This document shows, one piece after another, positions 47,418 through 53,467 of a stretch of 64,000 nt of DNA. The DNA lies in contig JBDQHL010000003.1 in NCBI GenBank assembly GCA_040264895.1, positions 72 through 64,071 on the forward strand. The letters are read 5' to 3'. The stretch is from Bacteroidota bacterium (GTDB lineage: Bacteria > Bacteroidota > Ignavibacteria > Kapaibacteriales > UBA2268). The translations under genes and the position numbers were made by a program. Positions within the stretch are counted from its first letter, which is position 1, and each line of letters starts with the position of its first letter. The notes below the pieces were generated by a model. It saw nothing but the letters and a program-made list of their open reading frames with translations, was not told where the DNA came from and searched no databases.

Positions 47418-48485
47418 ATGAATAACCTCCACAGAATAATACATATTGATATGGATGCGTTTTTTGCATCAGTTGAACAAAGGAACAACCCTAAACTAAG
47501 AGGCAAGGCAATAGCTGTGGGTGGTGGCCACCGAGGAGTTGTGTCAGCAGCTAGCTATGAAGCAAGAAAATTTGGCGTACGTTCTGCCATGCCATCTCAT
47601 CAAGCCAGAAAGCTATGCCCACATATTATTTTTGTTCGGGGGAACTATCAGGCTTATAAAGAGGCTTCTGATAGAGTAATGAAAGTTCTTAAATCCTACA
47701 CAAATAAGATTCAGCAGGTTTCTATAGATGAAGCATACATTGATGTCACTGATTACAAACCAAATGAGATGACAGCAAAAGAGATAGCTATAGAGATAAG
47801 AAGAAGAATAAAAAAAGAGGTAAACCTAACTGCATCAGCAGGCATTTCATTTAATAAATTCTTAGCCAAAGTTGCTTCTGATTGCAACAAGCCAGACGGA
47901 TATTATGTTATCCATCCAAATAAAGCAGACAAATTTGTTGCTCAGCTGGAAGTTGAAAAGATACCAGGTGTTGGCAAAGTGAATAAAGAAAAATTAAACT
48001 CTAAGGGGATGTATATTGGTAAAGATATATTAGATAAAGGAAAGGTCTATATGGCTCTAAACTTCGGAAAGATGGGAGTATACCTTCATGACCAAGTCAC
48101 TTTTAAGTACTTTAGCCCAGTTGTGAGCAAAAGACTAAGAAAATCAATTGGCAGGGAGAGAACATTTGCAGACAATATAGATGACCACCACGAAATGCTA
48201 AGCAAGCTTTATGAGATTTCTAAAAAAGTAGCAAGTGATATGGAGAAAAAAAAGTTATCAGGTAGAACAGTGACTTTAAAAATAAAGTATCATAATTTTG
48301 TAATCAAGACAAGAAGCAGAACACTCAATGATTATATTTCCTCAAGTAATGAGATCTATGGAATTATTTCAGAATTACTTATGATTCCAAATTATCCTGA
48401 AGAGCCGGTTAGACTGCTAGGAATACAGATATCAAACTTAGATAATATAAAACCAAGCAGCTCACAACTGCACATAGAGTTTTAA
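47418..48485 (+). CDS. dinB: DNA polymerase IV (Y-family)
   Basis: 'IIHIDMDAFFASVEQ' and 'SIDEAYIDVT' are the Y-family catalytic motifs. Confidence 0.9.
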   Translation: MNNLHRIIHIDMDAFFASVEQRNNPKLRGKAIAVGGGHRGVVSAASYEARKFGVRSAMPSHQARKLCPHIIFVRGNYQAYKEASDRVMKVLKSYTNKIQQVSIDEAYIDVTDYKPNEMTAKEIAIEIRRRIKKEVNLTASAGISFNKFLAKVASDCNKPDGYYVIHPNKADKFVAQLEVEKIPGVGKVNKEKLNSKGMYIGKDILDKGKVYMALNFGKMGVYLHDQVTFKYFSPVVSKRLRKSIGRERTFADNIDDHHEMLSKLYEISKKVASDMEKKKLSGRTVTLKIKYHNFVIKTRSRTLNDYISSSNEIYGIISELLMIPNYPEEPVRLLGIQISNLDNIKPSSSQLHIEF

Positions 48486-48495
48486 ATTATATTTA

Positions 48496-48536
48496 AAAAC
48501 AGCTTAGTTATTTAGATTGGCTAAGCTGTTTTTTTA
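48496..48536 (+). terminator. Rho-independent terminator of dinB (AACAGCTTAG...CTAAGCTGTT plus T-run)
   Basis: 'aaaaacagcttagttatttagattggctaagctgttttttt'. Confidence 0.7.
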
Positions 48537-48682
48537 TTAGCATTTATAAATATCTGATTCTATTATTCTTTTGAGAAACCAACACATCATCACAAAAAAA
48601 GTCAATTTATTGTAATTAGTTTCGTTCTTAGTTAAATTGTGAAATTGAATTAAATACATTAACAAATTAATAAACAACTTAG

Positions 48683-49342
48683 ATGAATTTAATATTTTTA
48701 GGCCCTCCGGGAGCTGGTAAAGGAACACAAGCAAAAAAAATATGTGAAAAGTATGACCTAACGCAAATAGCGACTGGTGATATACTTCGCGAACATTTGA
48801 AAAATGAAACTGGACTTGGTAAAAAGGCAAAAGAATTCATTAACGCTGGTAACTTAGTTCCCAATGATATCATAATAGACATGATGAGGTACGAAATTGA
48901 AAAAGCTCGTGGGAACAGCAGTGGAATACTATTAGATGGGTTCCCTCGGACTATTGCTCAAGCTGAAGCATTGGATGAGTTAATGAGCGACTTGAATGAT
49001 AAAATCAATCTAGCTATTGTTCTGAATGTTCCTAATAGTGAACTTATGGAAAGGTTAACAGGTAGAAGAGTCTGCCCTAAGTGTGGTACTTCTTATCACG
49101 CTAAGTTCAATCCTCCTGTAAATGATGGTATATGTGACAATGACGGTGAAGAGTTAATCCAAAGAAAAGACGACAATGAGGAAACTGTTAGTAATAGATT
49201 AAAAGTTTATGAAGAACAGACCAAGCCAATAATTGAATACTATACAAAACAAGATATAGAGCACAATATAGATGGTGTAGGTTCGGTTAATGATATATTT
49301 AATAAAGTTAGTGAAGCAATTAACAACACTGTAAGCAGCTAA
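48683..49342 (+). CDS. adk: Adenylate kinase (long form with Zn-binding LID)
   Basis: 'LIFLGPPGAGKGTQA' P-loop; LID 'CPKCGTSYH...'. Confidence 0.9.
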   Translation: MNLIFLGPPGAGKGTQAKKICEKYDLTQIATGDILREHLKNETGLGKKAKEFINAGNLVPNDIIIDMMRYEIEKARGNSSGILLDGFPRTIAQAEALDELMSDLNDKINLAIVLNVPNSELMERLTGRRVCPKCGTSYHAKFNPPVNDGICDNDGEELIQRKDDNEETVSNRLKVYEEQTKPIIEYYTKQDIEHNIDGVGSVNDIFNKVSEAINNTVSS

Positions 49343-49346
49343 TATA

Positions 49347-50501
49347 TTGGCAAATAAAGAAAAAATATCGTGTCTTTACTGTCAGTCTGAAAATGTTATA
49401 AAACATGGTAAGACTAGATCAGGCGACCCTAGGCTAAGGTGCAAGGATTGCTCCAAAACTTGGGTAAAAGGTATAGTTATACATAATAAACCAGATATTA
49501 GTACAGTTGCTGAATCATATTTACTTGGTCACTCTGTTCGTGATTTAGTCCCTTTTTATAAGAGCTCACCACATAGAATAAATACAAAAATTAGAAACTA
49601 CCTTTCCAAAACTCAGAGCTGGGAGGACTTTTTAGATAAAAGTTCGGAAGTTAGAAACGCTGATGTGGTTTACTTGCAAGGAATTCGTTTCAATTGCTCT
49701 TATAATTCACCTGAAAATAATGAAATGTATATAGCATTTGCCATAGAAGGACTATCATCGAACATTATTGGGTTTGAAATTGCTGAGGACAACACTGAAT
49801 TAGTCTGGTCAAATTTAATTGACAGATTGAAAAACAGAGGCTATAAAGTAAATACATTCCTAACTAGAGATATAAAAGCAATAGAAAAACCAGTAAATCG
49901 CAATTTTGAATCTGCAAAAATAAAGCTTTACCTGCATAAGCTAAACAGAGACAAAGAAATGGAGCACAAATGCTGTCTACTAGAGAAGAAAACTCTGAGA
50001 GATAAGCTAATAGATGATGCTCTAAAATTTTACTCTAAACTAGATAATCAATCATACTCTTCTTACTTAAAGAACAGATTTGATATGGATTTGAAATCAT
50101 GCATTAATAAGGATTGTGACAGATTCTTTGAATGTATGATGAAGAACTGTGGTAAAGAATCGGATGCTAGACTTGAACAATTGCTCGAGGATTTTAATGA
50201 GCGATTTGGGAAATTTCACGCATTAAAAACAAATCCTTACCCAATTGTCAACGCTTGGGTGGGGCTTCATATGCTTAGACCAATGGAATGTGGATTTACA
50301 CGCTATTCACTTTACAACCAAGTTCCTTGTAAATGCTCTTTCAGTTGTTTTGCTAGTAACCACAATGAAGAGCAGTGCGAATTTATACCTAATGAAAGAC
50401 AACTAAACAGCTTTGCTAACGAAGTCACAATCAGAGCTCTACACTTACCTATAGAATCGACTGTACGTGGAAGATTCAAACTACAGTTAAAGAATCTATA
50501 A
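49347..50501 (+). CDS. IS1/IS1595-superfamily transposase-like protein: InsA-type zinc ribbon + HTH N-terminus, catalytically degenerate DDE-like core, Cys-rich C-terminus; TTG start 4 nt after the adk stop; no IS terminal repeats
   Basis: 'CLYCQSENVIKHGKTRSGDPRLRCKDCSKTW' matches the IS1 InsA zinc-finger pattern C-x2-C...NGK-S/T-x2-G-x-QR...C-x2-C-x-KTW. The following segment aligns with the IS1 InsB/IS1595 DDE core, but the D/E positions read Y/L/Q. Confidence 0.5.
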   Translation: MANKEKISCLYCQSENVIKHGKTRSGDPRLRCKDCSKTWVKGIVIHNKPDISTVAESYLLGHSVRDLVPFYKSSPHRINTKIRNYLSKTQSWEDFLDKSSEVRNADVVYLQGIRFNCSYNSPENNEMYIAFAIEGLSSNIIGFEIAEDNTELVWSNLIDRLKNRGYKVNTFLTRDIKAIEKPVNRNFESAKIKLYLHKLNRDKEMEHKCCLLEKKTLRDKLIDDALKFYSKLDNQSYSSYLKNRFDMDLKSCINKDCDRFFECMMKNCGKESDARLEQLLEDFNERFGKFHALKTNPYPIVNAWVGLHMLRPMECGFTRYSLYNQVPCKCSFSCFASNHNEEQCEFIPNERQLNSFANEVTIRALHLPIESTVRGRFKLQLKNL

Positions 50502-50711
50502 GCTTGATTTAATTCTCATCTTACAATCTATAAAATTAATATCTCTTAGATAAATAATATACTGCATATTGATATTAAGATTACAAGTGAAATTCATTTA
50601 AATCGATATTTTATTTGAATTATAATTAGTTGTTTATTAAATTAATTCCTTGTATGAATCAAAAAATAGATAAAAAAGATATTATTATCCTCATATCTAT
50701 TATTTTTTAAT

Positions 50712-51185
50712 ATGGCATTATTATCTAAATCATGTGTTTACGGCATAAGAGCCTCAATTTATATAGCTTCGGAAGCGGTAGATAACTATATATCTATTAG
50801 TAAAGTTGCAAAAGATCTGAATTTATCAGCTCACTTTCTCACAAAAATATTGCAACAGCTCACTAATGAAGGTCTTCTACTTTCGCACAAAGGTCCAAAA
50901 GGTGGAGTAAAATTTTCACAGGACACTAAAAATATTTCGTTGTTTGAGATAATTTCAGCAATAGATGGAATGAGCTTATTTGACGAATGTGCTTTGGGGT
51001 TAGAGGGATGTGGCATTTACAAACCCTGCCCACTTCACGACACCTGGACTGTCCACCGCAAAAACCTGAAAGAATTATTCGAGCAAGAGAGCTTAGCTGA
51101 CCTGGCCAAAAACGTAAAAAGTGCCGGTCTTAGGTTACGAACACTAAACCAAGAAGAACTACTTAACATGAAGAATAAAGGATAA
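50712..51185 (+). CDS. Rrf2-family transcriptional regulator with IscR-like cluster ligands (C-x6-C-x5-C-x2-H)
   Basis: N-terminal wHTH 'YGIRASIYIA...ISKVAKDLNLSAHFLTKILQQL'; 'DECALGLEGCGIYKPCPLH'. Confidence 0.8.
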   Translation: MALLSKSCVYGIRASIYIASEAVDNYISISKVAKDLNLSAHFLTKILQQLTNEGLLLSHKGPKGGVKFSQDTKNISLFEIISAIDGMSLFDECALGLEGCGIYKPCPLHDTWTVHRKNLKELFEQESLADLAKNVKSAGLRLRTLNQEELLNMKNKG

Positions 51186-51217
51186 AAAAAAACCGAGCCA
51201 CCTAGCTCGGTTTTTTC
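51185..51217. terminator. Bidirectional rho-independent terminator between the Rrf2 gene (+) and yceI (-): CCGAGC...GCTCGG with A8/T6 flanks
   Basis: 'aaaaaaaaccgagccacctagctcggtttttt'. Confidence 0.65.
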
Positions 51218-51243
51218 ATATTCAATCTCTGCTTACCAGTTGC

Positions 51244-51831
51244 TTACTTGTTAGCAACCAAATGCAAAGTCATTGTAAATTCATCGTAAATCAGTTTATC
51301 ACCAAGTGCTTCTATATCGAAAAAACTTTTAGATCTAAATTTAACATCGTAATCTGATCTATCTAAAGTAATAGTTGCTACTGCAGTCATTGAATCTCCA
51401 CTTGCAGATAGCTCTGCTGGAAATGAAACTTTTTTAGTTATACCTTTTATCATCATGGTGCCGTGTACCATAGTCTGACCAGAAACAGTTTTAACTTCTG
51501 TTATCTCAAATTTTGCTTCTGGGTATTTCTCAACAGAGAAGAAATCATCAGACTTTAAGTGGTTTTCAAGTTTTGCTCTATAACCTTCATCTTCAATATC
51601 AGTATTCATGATAGAAGTCATATCTATTACAAATTCACCTTCAGTTAATTTACCATCAGAATAGTCTACACTGCCAGACTTAACACTTACATATCCGTCA
51701 TGCTCACCAGTTACTTTTTCAGCGTGCCATTTCAGTTTAGTTTTTTCTGTGTCTACTTCGTACTCAGCTGCAGTTACATTAGCCATAGCAAATAAACCAA
51801 GTGCAATTGTAGTTATAATCAATTTGTACAT
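51244..51831 (-). CDS. YceI-family periplasmic protein
   Basis: Signal peptide plus the YceI-like beta-barrel pattern ('KLKWHAEKVTGEHDGYVSVKSG...'). Confidence 0.75.
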   Translation of the reverse strand: MYKLIITTIALGLFAMANVTAAEYEVDTEKTKLKWHAEKVTGEHDGYVSVKSGSVDYSDGKLTEGEFVIDMTSIMNTDIEDEGYRAKLENHLKSDDFFSVEKYPEAKFEITEVKTVSGQTMVHGTMMIKGITKKVSFPAELSASGDSMTAVATITLDRSDYDVKFRSKSFFDIEALGDKLIYDEFTMTLHLVANK

Positions 51832-51861
51832 TTTAAAACTCCATATAATATTAAAATAAAT

Positions 51862-52320
51862 TTATTCTTCTAGATTTCTACTTATTTCCCAAAGTACTTT
51901 ATTACATATTTCTAATTCTTTCTTATTAACCCCTTCTAGTGCTTGTTTTCTTGTTTTAAGACCAAGCTCTATTGAAGTTTTTTCCAAATCCTTACCAGCT
52001 TTAGTTAGGTAAATTTTGTTGCAACGTTTATCATCTTTATTAACTCTTCGCTCAATAAGTCCCTTTTGTTCAAGGTTATTCAAAAGCCTAGTAATTCCAG
52101 GTTTATCCTTGTGAGTTGCTTTGGCTATATCCAACTGAGTCAAGCCTTGTGTAGACCACAACTGCTTTAGTATACCGTATTGCTCAGATGTTATCTTGTT
52201 GCCCGCAATCCTTAAGTTATTGCTCAAAGTTCTATTAACAGCTCTGTATGCTATGCCGGTGAGACAACCGATAGAATTATCAGATATATTGTCATTTTTA
52301 GTTGTCATAACAACTATCAC
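51862..52320 (-). CDS. MarR-family transcriptional regulator
   Basis: 'ITSEQYGILKQLWSTQGLTQLDIAKATHKDKPGITRLLNNLEQKGLIERRVNKDDKR' is the MarR wHTH. Confidence 0.8.
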   Translation of the reverse strand: MIVVMTTKNDNISDNSIGCLTGIAYRAVNRTLSNNLRIAGNKITSEQYGILKQLWSTQGLTQLDIAKATHKDKPGITRLLNNLEQKGLIERRVNKDDKRCNKIYLTKAGKDLEKTSIELGLKTRKQALEGVNKKELEICNKVLWEISRNLEE

Positions 52321-52375
52321 GTTTCTTAATAAATTCTATTGTAATATTATTACATACTAAATCTAATAATATTAA

Positions 52376-53467
52376 TTACAAAAATGGATAGTCGGTATAT
52401 CCCTTGCTACCGCCTTTGTAAAAGGTGCGGACACTCCAATCATTTAGTTCGGCATCAACTTCTATTCGCTTCACTAAATCCGGGTTCGCGATTATCAATT
52501 TACCAAATGCAACCATATCAGCGTTTTCATTCTGAAGTGTTCTTTCTGCTTCTTCTATATCATAACCACTATTAGTTATTAGTGTTCCATTGTAGATTTT
52601 ACGGAAGTGTGGAGTCACCTCTCTATCTTGCAGATATTTTTCTTGGGGGACGTAAGTCTTTCCTGGAGGAGCATAAGGTTCCATAATATGTAAATAGGAA
52701 AGGTCATATTTGTTCAATTCTCCCACCAAATAGCTGAAAGTTTCTACAGGAGTTTCGTCAATCATACCATTAAAAGTACCACTTGGAGACAATCTGATAG
52801 CCGTTCTTTCACTACCTATACTCTCCGATACAGCTTTCACAACTTCAAGTGCAAACCGGCATCTATTTTCAATACTACCACCATATTTATCTGTTCTGTC
52901 GTTAGAACCAGAGCATATAAACTGATCTATAAGGTAGCCGTTAGCTCCATGTATTTCTACCCCATCAAATCCAGCCTTTATTGCGTTATTAGCGGCATTA
53001 ACATAGTCTTGAATAGTAGATTCAATATCTTCTAAAGTTAGCGGACGTGGATCAACTTTTGGTTTCAACCCATCGTATGTGTACACAGTACCACCTGAGT
53101 TTATGTTAGATGCAGAAACAGGCAATTCACCATCATGAAAATCTGGGTGTGATGATCTACCTGTGTGCCATAATTGTAAGTAGAAATGGCCTCCTTTTTC
53201 TTTGACTGCCTTAGTTACTGGCTTCCAAGATTCGACATGTTCATCAGACCAAATGCCAGGTGTGTTCATATACCCTACTGCTATTGGTGATATATTTGTA
53301 GCTTCAGTAACTATTAGACCAGTACTTGCCCTTTGTGAGTAATATTCTGCCATCAGTTCATTCGCTAAGCCACTTCTGTCTGAACGGCAGCGAGTAAGAG
53401 GTGCCATTGCAACTCTGTTTGGTATGTCTGTATTCCCCAATTTTATTGGAGTAAGCAATTTTTTCAT
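52376..53467 (-). CDS. Old Yellow Enzyme-family NADH:flavin oxidoreductase (alkene reductase, NemA-like)
   Basis: 'PNRVAMAPLTRCRS' and 'HGANGYLIDQF' are OYE signatures. Confidence 0.85.
   Translation of the reverse strand: MKKLLTPIKLGNTDIPNRVAMAPLTRCRSDRSGLANELMAEYYSQRASTGLIVTEATNISPIAVGYMNTPGIWSDEHVESWKPVTKAVKEKGGHFYLQLWHTGRSSHPDFHDGELPVSASNINSGGTVYTYDGLKPKVDPRPLTLEDIESTIQDYVNAANNAIKAGFDGVEIHGANGYLIDQFICSGSNDRTDKYGGSIENRCRFALEVVKAVSESIGSERTAIRLSPSGTFNGMIDETPVETFSYLVGELNKYDLSYLHIMEPYAPPGKTYVPQEKYLQDREVTPHFRKIYNGTLITNSGYDIEEAERTLQNENADMVAFGKLIIANPDLVKRIEVDAELNDWSVRTFYKGGSKGYTDYPFL

Follow-up and report, generated by a model that had tools for sequence, protein, structure and literature searches.

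What is a protein that carries the marks of a transposase doing directly behind the adenylate kinase gene of a Bacteroidota genome? The locus lies in a 64,000-nucleotide (64-kb) stretch of contig JBDQHL010000003.1, hereafter called the window, from a Bacteroidota bacterium of the lineage Ignavibacteria, Kapaibacteriales, UBA2268. The gene in question, here called X, occupies positions 49347 to 50501 of the forward strand, starts with TTG and encodes 384 amino acids (aa). It is the second of a pair. The first gene, adk (48683 to 49342, forward strand), encodes an adenylate kinase of 219 aa (Pfam ADK PF00406, E 1e-53, plus ADK_lid), and the TTG of X follows its stop codon (49340-49342) after only 4 nt (TATA). 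Relatives of X are named "IS1 family transposase" or hypothetical in GenBank by the Prokaryotic Genome Annotation Pipeline (PGAP). Our analysis gives strong grounds for regarding X as a domesticated, immobile and catalytically inactive derivative of an IS256/Mutator-like transposase, and suggests a regulatory role for it.

The first step is to establish what kind of protein X is. Its N-terminus carries a four-Cys zinc ribbon (aa 6-40, C9, C12, C32 and C35; 49362 to 49466, forward strand; PF03811, NF050000/NF048018). Zn_ribbon_InsA PF03811 (E 1e-6, 28.8 bits against a cut-off of 26.1) and IS1_IS1595_Zn NF050000 (E 1.7e-9, 38.1 bits against a cut-off of 28) both recognise it, which bears out the InsA-type ribbon named in a preliminary description of this DNA, and the curated threshold of NCBIfam IS256_N_4Cys is also passed. 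The ribbon is found in all 23 family members searched. Residue conservation was counted across 87 sequences of the X family, where three of the four Cys columns of the ribbon are invariant and C32 is replaced by Ser once, one sequence lacking the other three columns. The invariant C9 is retained by the TTG alone among the in-frame starts, and the starts of orthologues align with it (ATG in L003-L009, TTG in L011; L numbers denote loci). The open reading frame (ORF), its coordinates and the previously proposed start behind the adk stop were confirmed.

The body of the protein has a different affinity. Pfam Transposase_mut gives a short match in X and in 16 of the 23 members, and MULE in three; PF00872 covers only residues 119-192 of X (24.3 bits). 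DDE_Tnp_IS1 (PF03400), the DDE core of IS1 type, has no match in any of the 23. The top structural match of the X model is the ISCth4 transposase, over most of its length (Foldseek alignment of 329 columns). A profile search of solved structures was set aside, its matches being mostly spurious ones to C2H2 zinc-finger linkers. X is thus of IS256/Mutator type by its body and IS1/IS1595-like in the zinc ribbon alone. It fits membership of neither family, as catalytic motifs, ends, copy number and full-length scores all fail; the full-length models transpos_IS1 (NF033558) and transpos_IS256 (NF033543) score 34.3 bits against a cut-off of 100 and 35.2 bits against a cut-off of 150, respectively.

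An AlphaFold (AF2) model of X was built from a diverse 23-sequence alignment and was confident, with a predicted local distance difference test score (pLDDT) of 87 and a predicted template modelling score (pTM) of 0.83. The 13 close homologues alone had given an unusable model (pLDDT 47), and addition of the distant members made it confident. From N- to C-terminus the model contains the zinc ribbon, a four-helix region resembling a helix-turn-helix (HTH), an RNase H-like core, a helical insertion and a further helical region. The HTH-like region (aa 50-100; 49494 to 49646, forward strand; AF2 and hhalign), a predicted DNA-binding region with SPxRxNxKIR and WE..LD motifs, has helices at 51-59, 64-71, 75-87 and 92-99 with pLDDT above 90. 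It aligns in hhalign with 99% probability to the N-terminus of P0088, a real zinc-ribbon IS256-like transposase and the closest intact one, whose only contig is 1.9 kb long and ends at the gene. The mean frequency of the top residue is 0.66-0.67 in the zinc ribbon and HTH and 0.68 in the segment 271-312, and lies between 0.46 and 0.56 in the core, insertion and C-terminus.

The catalytic residues are where X departs from a working enzyme. ISCth4 TnpA uses D175, D241 and E348, plus C262/H265, and carries a four-helix insertion domain (PMC7780238). The RNase H-like former catalytic core of X (aa 104-195; 49656 to 49931, forward strand), with the order b1-b2-b3-a1-b4-a2-b5 in AF2, was aligned with ISCth4 by phmmer against 6xg8 (PDB numbering +3). 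Q111 of X (49677-49679) aligns with the first catalytic Asp, D175 of ISCth4, and D175 of X (49869-49871) with the second. An acidic residue is conserved at no position of strand b1 (0-7% of the 87 sequences), and the place of the first Asp, Q111 in X, is taken by V, I, Y or L elsewhere in the family. Asp at 175 is confined to the 14 sequences of the adk-linked clade (clade A), with Gly or Ser elsewhere. The preliminary description had read YLQ and TRD as altered catalytic positions; YLQ does stand at the first Asp, but TRD retains the second one, in clade A only. The CxxH motif has gone, leaving Y195...H197/K198 in X, and residues 195, 197 and 198 differ by clade, Cys being absent. Having lost the first catalytic Asp and the CxxH motif, X is predicted to be no longer able to cut or join DNA.

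Behind the core lies an alpha-helical insertion domain (aa 196-270; 49932 to 50156, forward strand; AF2 helices 196-268), followed at the position of the former Glu by the E277 helix and the motif RFEKFH.LK.DP.PI(V)N.W (50157 to 50282, forward strand), which are very conserved in alignment A2. Residue 277 (50175-50177) is acidic (E/D) in 86 of the 87 sequences, and R275 (50169-50171) is present in 82. From the place of E277 after the insertion domain we infer that it is equivalent to E348 of ISCth4, and the conservation of E277/R275 despite the losses of Asp points to a retained role for this helix. The last 150 aa had been described as a novel domain; residues from about 196 to 310 proved to be the insertion domain and the Glu helix, and only the last ~70 aa are without a counterpart. 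This C-terminal region (aa 313-384; 50283 to 50498, forward strand) has a lower pLDDT, below 50 past residue 372, and contains C315, C328, C330, C334 and C344, which are invariant in clade A and replaced by I, V, T, N or L in the other clades. Those clades carry different Cys sets, for example CC at 210-211 with a C-terminal Cx6C. In clade A, aa 328-339 (CKCSFSCFASNH; window 50328-50365) have a CxCx3Cx4H spacing that recalls MuDR-type SWIM zinc fingers; the segment has no Pfam match.

X is a fixed host gene, and this excludes both an active insertion sequence (IS) and a decaying remnant. It has 15 close homologues among 5.8 billion proteins, and those not truncated by a contig end are 384-387 aa long and about 50-90% identical. 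The wider family was revealed by a full HMMER scan and a metagenome scan. Among 1.84 billion representatives HMMER found ~25 further clusters at 50% identity, of ~370-390 aa, and beyond these only zinc-ribbon matches and a few true transposases at E ~1e-5. Among species-representative genomes, one X locus was found in each of 10 metagenome-assembled genomes (MAGs), labelled Candidatus Kapaibacterium, Ignavibacteriota, Chlorobiota or Bacteroidota. The named GenBank records of the distant clusters read 'Candidatus Kapabacteria bacterium'. A scan of genome contigs covered peptide patterns specific to clade A, and the taxonomy of the other clades is based on these few records, on a neighbour with a type IX secretion system (T9SS) sorting domain and on the gene order sat-aprBA-hyp-hyp.

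Position and sequence are both held in place. The exact X protein of the window was read on 9 contigs, which come from different samples and have adk upstream in every case where the sequence extends that far. The preliminary description had seen X as recruited to a core operon, and the adk-linked position is indeed kept throughout its clade: adk lies directly 5' of X in 20 fetched loci, down to 34-50% identity, and the other neighbours vary. It stands immediately 5' in L001-L012 and L017. The gap is 16 nt in L001/L002 and 1-9 nt across the core clade, the latter short enough to make translational coupling of X to adk plausible. A homologue in L013 (8001-8900; Candidatus Kapaibacterium sp., 41% identity) has no adk within 8 kb upstream; either adk linkage is not universal in the group or the L013 copy is a paralogue. 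Between relatives dN is 0.04-0.2 and synonymous sites are saturated, and dN/dS (the ratio of non-synonymous to synonymous substitution rates) is 0.01-0.03 where computable, no different from that of adk. In alignment A1, 130 columns are invariant.

Signs of mobility were sought at the locus and in relatives. No convincing terminal inverted repeats (TIRs) or target-site duplications (TSDs) flank X, only short AT-rich repeats at chance level, and their absence as claimed before is upheld. A weak inverted repeat enclosing adk and X (48664-48692 / 50615-50643, 76% over 29 nt, AT-rich) was put down to chance, for in L012 only 12 nt separate X from the next gene. There is no second copy of X in the window, and neither the window nor any of the 104 loci showed related IS copies; the search for extra copies thus yielded none in the window, one locus per genome in the 10 MAGs and one context for the exact protein. 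The earlier view of X as derived from a transposase, without a full DDE triad and not an insertion sequence, is supported.

The neighbourhoods of the wider family give a first idea of function. The metagenome scan gave 80 further loci, whose neighbouring ORFs were clustered and identified with Pfam and NCBIfam, and contexts were mapped onto a neighbour-joining tree of X. Clade A has the order adk > X and includes the window as well as deep branches at 34-38% identity (L047/50, L051/74, L022/24 and L023); the arrangement DUF3078 < adk > X, shared by some deep branches, suggests that the adk linkage is old. Clade B has a PAS histidine kinase > receiver-GcvH > X > sat-aprB-aprA-hyp-hyp, plus various housekeeping contexts, and clade C has qmoA-qmoB-like > X > sat-aprBA. 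The order in clade D is X > (YeiH-family transporter) > dsrA-dsrB-dsrD, and X is flanked on its opposite side by macro-dsrM-dsrK or hmcB/C-like genes. The dsrA, dsrB, aprA and aprB genes pass NCBIfam equivalog cut-offs; for sat, the models passed at curated cut-offs are those of the sulfate adenylyltransferase subfamily and domain. Among the neighbours are also QmoA/B-like, DsrK/M-like and HmcC genes. The order sat-aprBA-hyp-hyp has been published for the sulfate-reducing Kapabacterium Ca. Thermonerobacter, the upstream gene not being mentioned there (PMC6338057).

Several further features of these neighbourhoods stand out. In distant X clades a PAS kinase and a response regulator lie directly 5' of X, as in L014 (3311-5909), L019 (3-1443) and L020 (574-1359), and the same arrangement is found in L026 (4839-5624), L044 and L082 (568-951). 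The output of this regulator is a GcvH-like (lipoyl/biotinyl-type) domain, not a DNA-binding one, and this uncommon receiver-GcvH fusion is a possible signalling partner of X. One sublineage of clade B has two tandem tRNA-like sequences ~50-300 nt after X (L029, L037, L042 and L043). At the dsr-clade loci L057, L062, L065, L067, L071, L075 and L092, a gene for a Macro domain, which binds or processes ADP-ribose, always stands between X and dsrM-dsrK. A YeiH-family putative sulfate exporter is often encoded 5' of dsrA, and both Macro and YeiH genes are uncommon beside dsr operons.

A second line of evidence comes from the promoter regions. Enrichment of k-mers in the intergenic regions adjacent to X yielded a box, AACACAT-N4-5-ACAAAA. 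In the window it occurs once, 5' of adk, as AACACATCATCACAAAA (48581 to 48597, forward strand; consensus AACAYA-N4-8-ACRAAA), against 0.02 matches expected, and a relaxed pattern finds the same single match; it is a candidate operator of X. It lies ~13 nt 5' of a -33-like TTG and 36 nt 5' of TTAAATTG. TTG (48610-48612) and TTAAATTG (48632-48639), 19 nt apart on the forward strand, form a putative Bacteroidota-type promoter of adk-X, in which the -33/-7 labels follow the published Bacteroides consensus, TTTG / TAnnTTTG. The ATTGTA.TT and CTT..TTAA(A/T)TTG columns are invariant in the 12-sequence alignment A3. A palindrome that appeared among the k-mers, TGTTGCAACA, was discarded, its enrichment having come from the GC-AACAYA half of the box.

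The exact box occurs once per locus in 27 fetched loci, and 26 of these copies adjoin X. The gene behind the box is adk in clade A, sat in L019, yeiH or dsrA in clade D and macro-dsrMK in L088; in several clade-B loci it is X itself. Where the target promoter is found beyond X on the opposite strand, the box is found there too (L071, L075, L077 and L088). The architecture 3' of the box is common to them: ~11 nt, TTG, ~19 nt, TA..TTT. In clade A the box is kept in 11 of 12 adk upstream regions despite saturated synonymous sites. Among non-redundant loci the strict box is present in 19 of 87 X-adjacent intergenic regions and in none of 164 controls of equal total length (p = 4e-10 by a Fisher test that overstates independence because the loci are phylogenetically related), and the loose box in 28 X-adjacent regions versus one control. 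Independent support for the box is the number of different downstream gene types, about five.

The explanation that best accounts for these observations, and which we consider reasonably probable, is that X is a domesticated IS256-type derivative acting as a regulator of adk and of itself. Its ancestor was an IS256/Mutator-type transposase carrying an IS1/IS1595-like N-terminal zinc ribbon, whose DNA-recognition module (zinc ribbon plus HTH) and overall fold were kept. X would be co-transcribed with adk from the boxed promoter, about 40-75 nt 5' of adk, and translated from the TTG past the adk stop, possibly by re-initiation. It would bind AACACAT-N4-5-ACAAAA through the zinc ribbon and HTH and thereby tune adk and its own synthesis. 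We put the chance that X is a transcription factor binding this box at a little better than even. The place of the box 5' of -33 would favour activation. Oligomerisation or the sensing of a signal may be the task of the dead core, insertion domain and clade-specific Cys-rich tail; the signal could be adenylates, sulfur species or redox state. X might in clade B be the DNA-binding end of a phosphorelay, as suggested by the adjacent kinase and by a receiver that lacks a DNA-binding output.

Since sisters of X adjoin sat-aprBA, qmoAB, dsrABD and dsrMK and the same box precedes those operons, the family looks like a set of lineage-specific regulators of adenylate and sulfate-activation energy metabolism. 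Sat converts ATP to adenosine 5'-phosphosulfate (APS), AprBA releases AMP, and Adk converts AMP and ATP to two ADP. Adenylate kinase and sulfate activation are linked in this scheme because Adk recycles the AMP that APS reductase releases. A more far-reaching version, which we regard as possible but rather doubtful, is that the family are Kapabacteria-specific transcription factors descended from a single IS256-like transposase, with the operator taken from its terminal repeat. The ancestral copy would autoregulate adk-X, and duplicates wired to the PAS kinase and receiver-GcvH would be master switches of dissimilatory sulfate reduction, with sat-aprBA, qmoAB, yeiH-dsrABD and macro-dsrMK under their control.

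Several points, besides the relatedness of the loci, weigh against X as a dead transposase turned regulator. Clade A keeps both D175 and E277, and residual metal binding is conceivable there. hhalign places the second Asp one residue earlier than phmmer does, a shift that leaves the family-level conclusion unchanged. The promoter elements are assigned by analogy with Bacteroides and are putative. The box was undetected in about half of the non-redundant loci; L017 and L001 lack it 5' of adk, as L103 and L104 do near X. Another factor could be its binder. The sulfur link is seen in relatives and may not apply to the window copy of X, because sat, apr, qmo and dsr homologues are all missing from the 64-kb window.

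Some of these points suit a different view, that X is domesticated and dead and is not a promoter-specific transcription factor. It would then be a nucleoid or architectural protein, a partner in recombination or repair, or a protein acting on or with adenylate kinase, and the box would be the site of another regulator or a lineage-specific promoter up-element. The link between box and X is after all an association, and loci without the box include some that are adk-linked. The conserved E277/R275 and RFEKFH..DP.P.N.W also point to a conserved function of the former catalytic region beyond simple DNA binding. However, few parts of X are as well conserved as the DNA-recognition module, and X is the sole gene common to all the boxed promoters (adk, sat, yeiH/dsrA, macro-dsrMK and X). 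Moreover, a general promoter feature should be commoner than one copy in 64 kb or in a locus, and the pairs of histidine kinase and receiver-GcvH directly 5' of X have no DNA-binding output of their own. We consider a role of this kind unlikely, at roughly one chance in four.

InsA of IS1 has the same zinc ribbon and HTH and acts as a repressor by binding the IS ends. X might likewise be an InsA-like repressor that silences related mobile elements and does not regulate host genes. IS256-family ends have TIRs with a subterminal TGTAAA (PMC7780238), and the reverse complement of the box holds the similar TTGTAAT. Yet the box stands in promoters of host operons, not at element ends, and the neighbours are conserved host genes; the TTGTAAT-containing box is a single copy in the adk promoter, and neither TIRs with a subterminal TGTAAA nor 8-9 bp target duplications flank X. 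With no related IS copies seen for it to silence in the window or the 104 loci, we hold this role to be very improbable.

The view that an IS1 or IS256 element, functional or active until recently, lies behind adk with X as its transposase, as the GenBank naming would have it, is less credible still. The PGAP name, the matches to zinc-ribbon and partial transposase profiles and the presence of D175 and E277 in clade A speak for it, but full-length models score far below their cut-offs, the first Asp and CxxH are gone, and X, which has one context and no TIRs or TSDs, shows positional orthology down to 50% identity and is conserved like adk. Least tenable of all is a decaying, functionless remnant carried passively in the adk transcription unit, which would suit the loss of catalytic residues and the lack of a known function but not an intact 384-aa frame in every non-truncated close relative, lengths of ~370-390 aa in ~25 clusters, or the dN/dS and invariant columns given above.

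X can be set beside several known systems. By descent its closest relative is ISCth4 TnpA (PDB 6xg8/6xgx; PMC7780238) of the IS256 family/Mutator group. In contrast to ISCth4, X lacks the first Asp (Q111) and CxxH, the second Asp is lost in most of the X family, and X adds the N-terminal four-Cys zinc ribbon and a clade-specific C-terminal extension. Whereas IS256 elements are bounded by TIRs and TSDs, X has neither, and is single-copy, positionally orthologous and under strong purifying selection. With IS1 InsA / InsAB' and the IS1595 N-terminus it shares the four-Cys zinc ribbon and, behind it, a helical region for DNA binding (PF03811, NF050000), but the family has no DDE_Tnp_IS1 core (0/23) and no insA/insB frameshift arrangement, the body is IS256-like and there is no IS.

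The plant proteins FHY3/FAR1 (FRS), transcription factors that descend from MULE transposases, combine a zinc finger at the N-terminus with a dead core (PMC13306707). X has in common with them an ancestor in the same superfamily (MULE corresponds to IS256 in eukaryotes), a zinc-finger domain for DNA binding at the N-terminus, an inactivated core, a C-terminal Cys-containing region and immobility; FHY3/FAR1 bind boxes in host promoters, as X would by inference. It differs in being an independent bacterial domestication, with an InsA-like ribbon in place of the FAR1 C2H2 finger, no SWIM match, and energy-metabolism operons as its presumed targets. Within bacteria, the TldR proteins are nuclease-dead repressors derived from TnpB (bioRxiv 10.1101/2023.11.30.569447). 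In TldR a transposon-encoded nuclease has lost catalysis and become a transcription factor for neighbouring host genes, but the TldR fold (RuvC/TnpB, RNA-guided) is unrelated to X, which is of DDE type and has no guide RNA (no Rfam match in the window).

The surroundings of the pair in the window are less constant. Downstream of X lies an Rrf2 regulator gene (PF02082, E 3e-26), which agrees with the conventional regulator seen there at first, although this neighbour is kept only in the closest relatives. It begins a stress-type cluster (50712-53467) of Rrf2 (+), YceI (-), MarR (-) and an Old-Yellow-Enzyme flavin oxidoreductase (-), and since Rrf2 is retained in the two closest relatives only (L011 and L012), it is not part of the adk-X unit. 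In L098 (4150-5049) an identical X protein is followed by another gene in place of Rrf2 (window 50502-51185), which indicates a strain-level rearrangement directly 3' of the pair. On the other side, a perfect 13-nt hairpin, AAAAACAGCTTAG / CTAAGCTGTTTTT (48495-48533), separates dinB (47418-48485) from the adk promoter; it is probably the terminator of dinB and sets the 5' boundary of the unit. Rfam and tRNA scans of the window gave no match, a sigma-70 promoter and terminator scan gave scores not above those of shuffles, and PADLOC found no match to a defence system.

To our knowledge, domesticated DDE transposases that serve as transcription factors are well documented in eukaryotes and hardly at all in bacteria. 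DDE transposases go unmentioned in a 2022 review of how prokaryotes recruit mobile elements, and our literature search found no description of the X family. X is probably a bacterial domesticated DDE transposase acting as a regulator, with an unexpected tie to adenylate and sulfate-respiration operons. It offers a clean, deep and lineage-wide example of bacterial domestication; its candidate operator is testable and its physiological logic plausible. From the window sequence alone one could not have seen the wider family, its links to sat-aprBA and dsrAB or the shared promoter box. Under the label 'IS1 family transposase' X would be discarded in counts of mobile elements or in reconstructions of the sulfur regulon of Kapabacteria. 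If the regulatory role is true, the family would give a first handle on the control of sulfate respiration outside the classical Desulfobacterota and Firmicutes models, and if its members are master switches, X would be a bacterial counterpart of FHY3/FAR1 and the first proposed regulator of sulfate respiration in its phylum.

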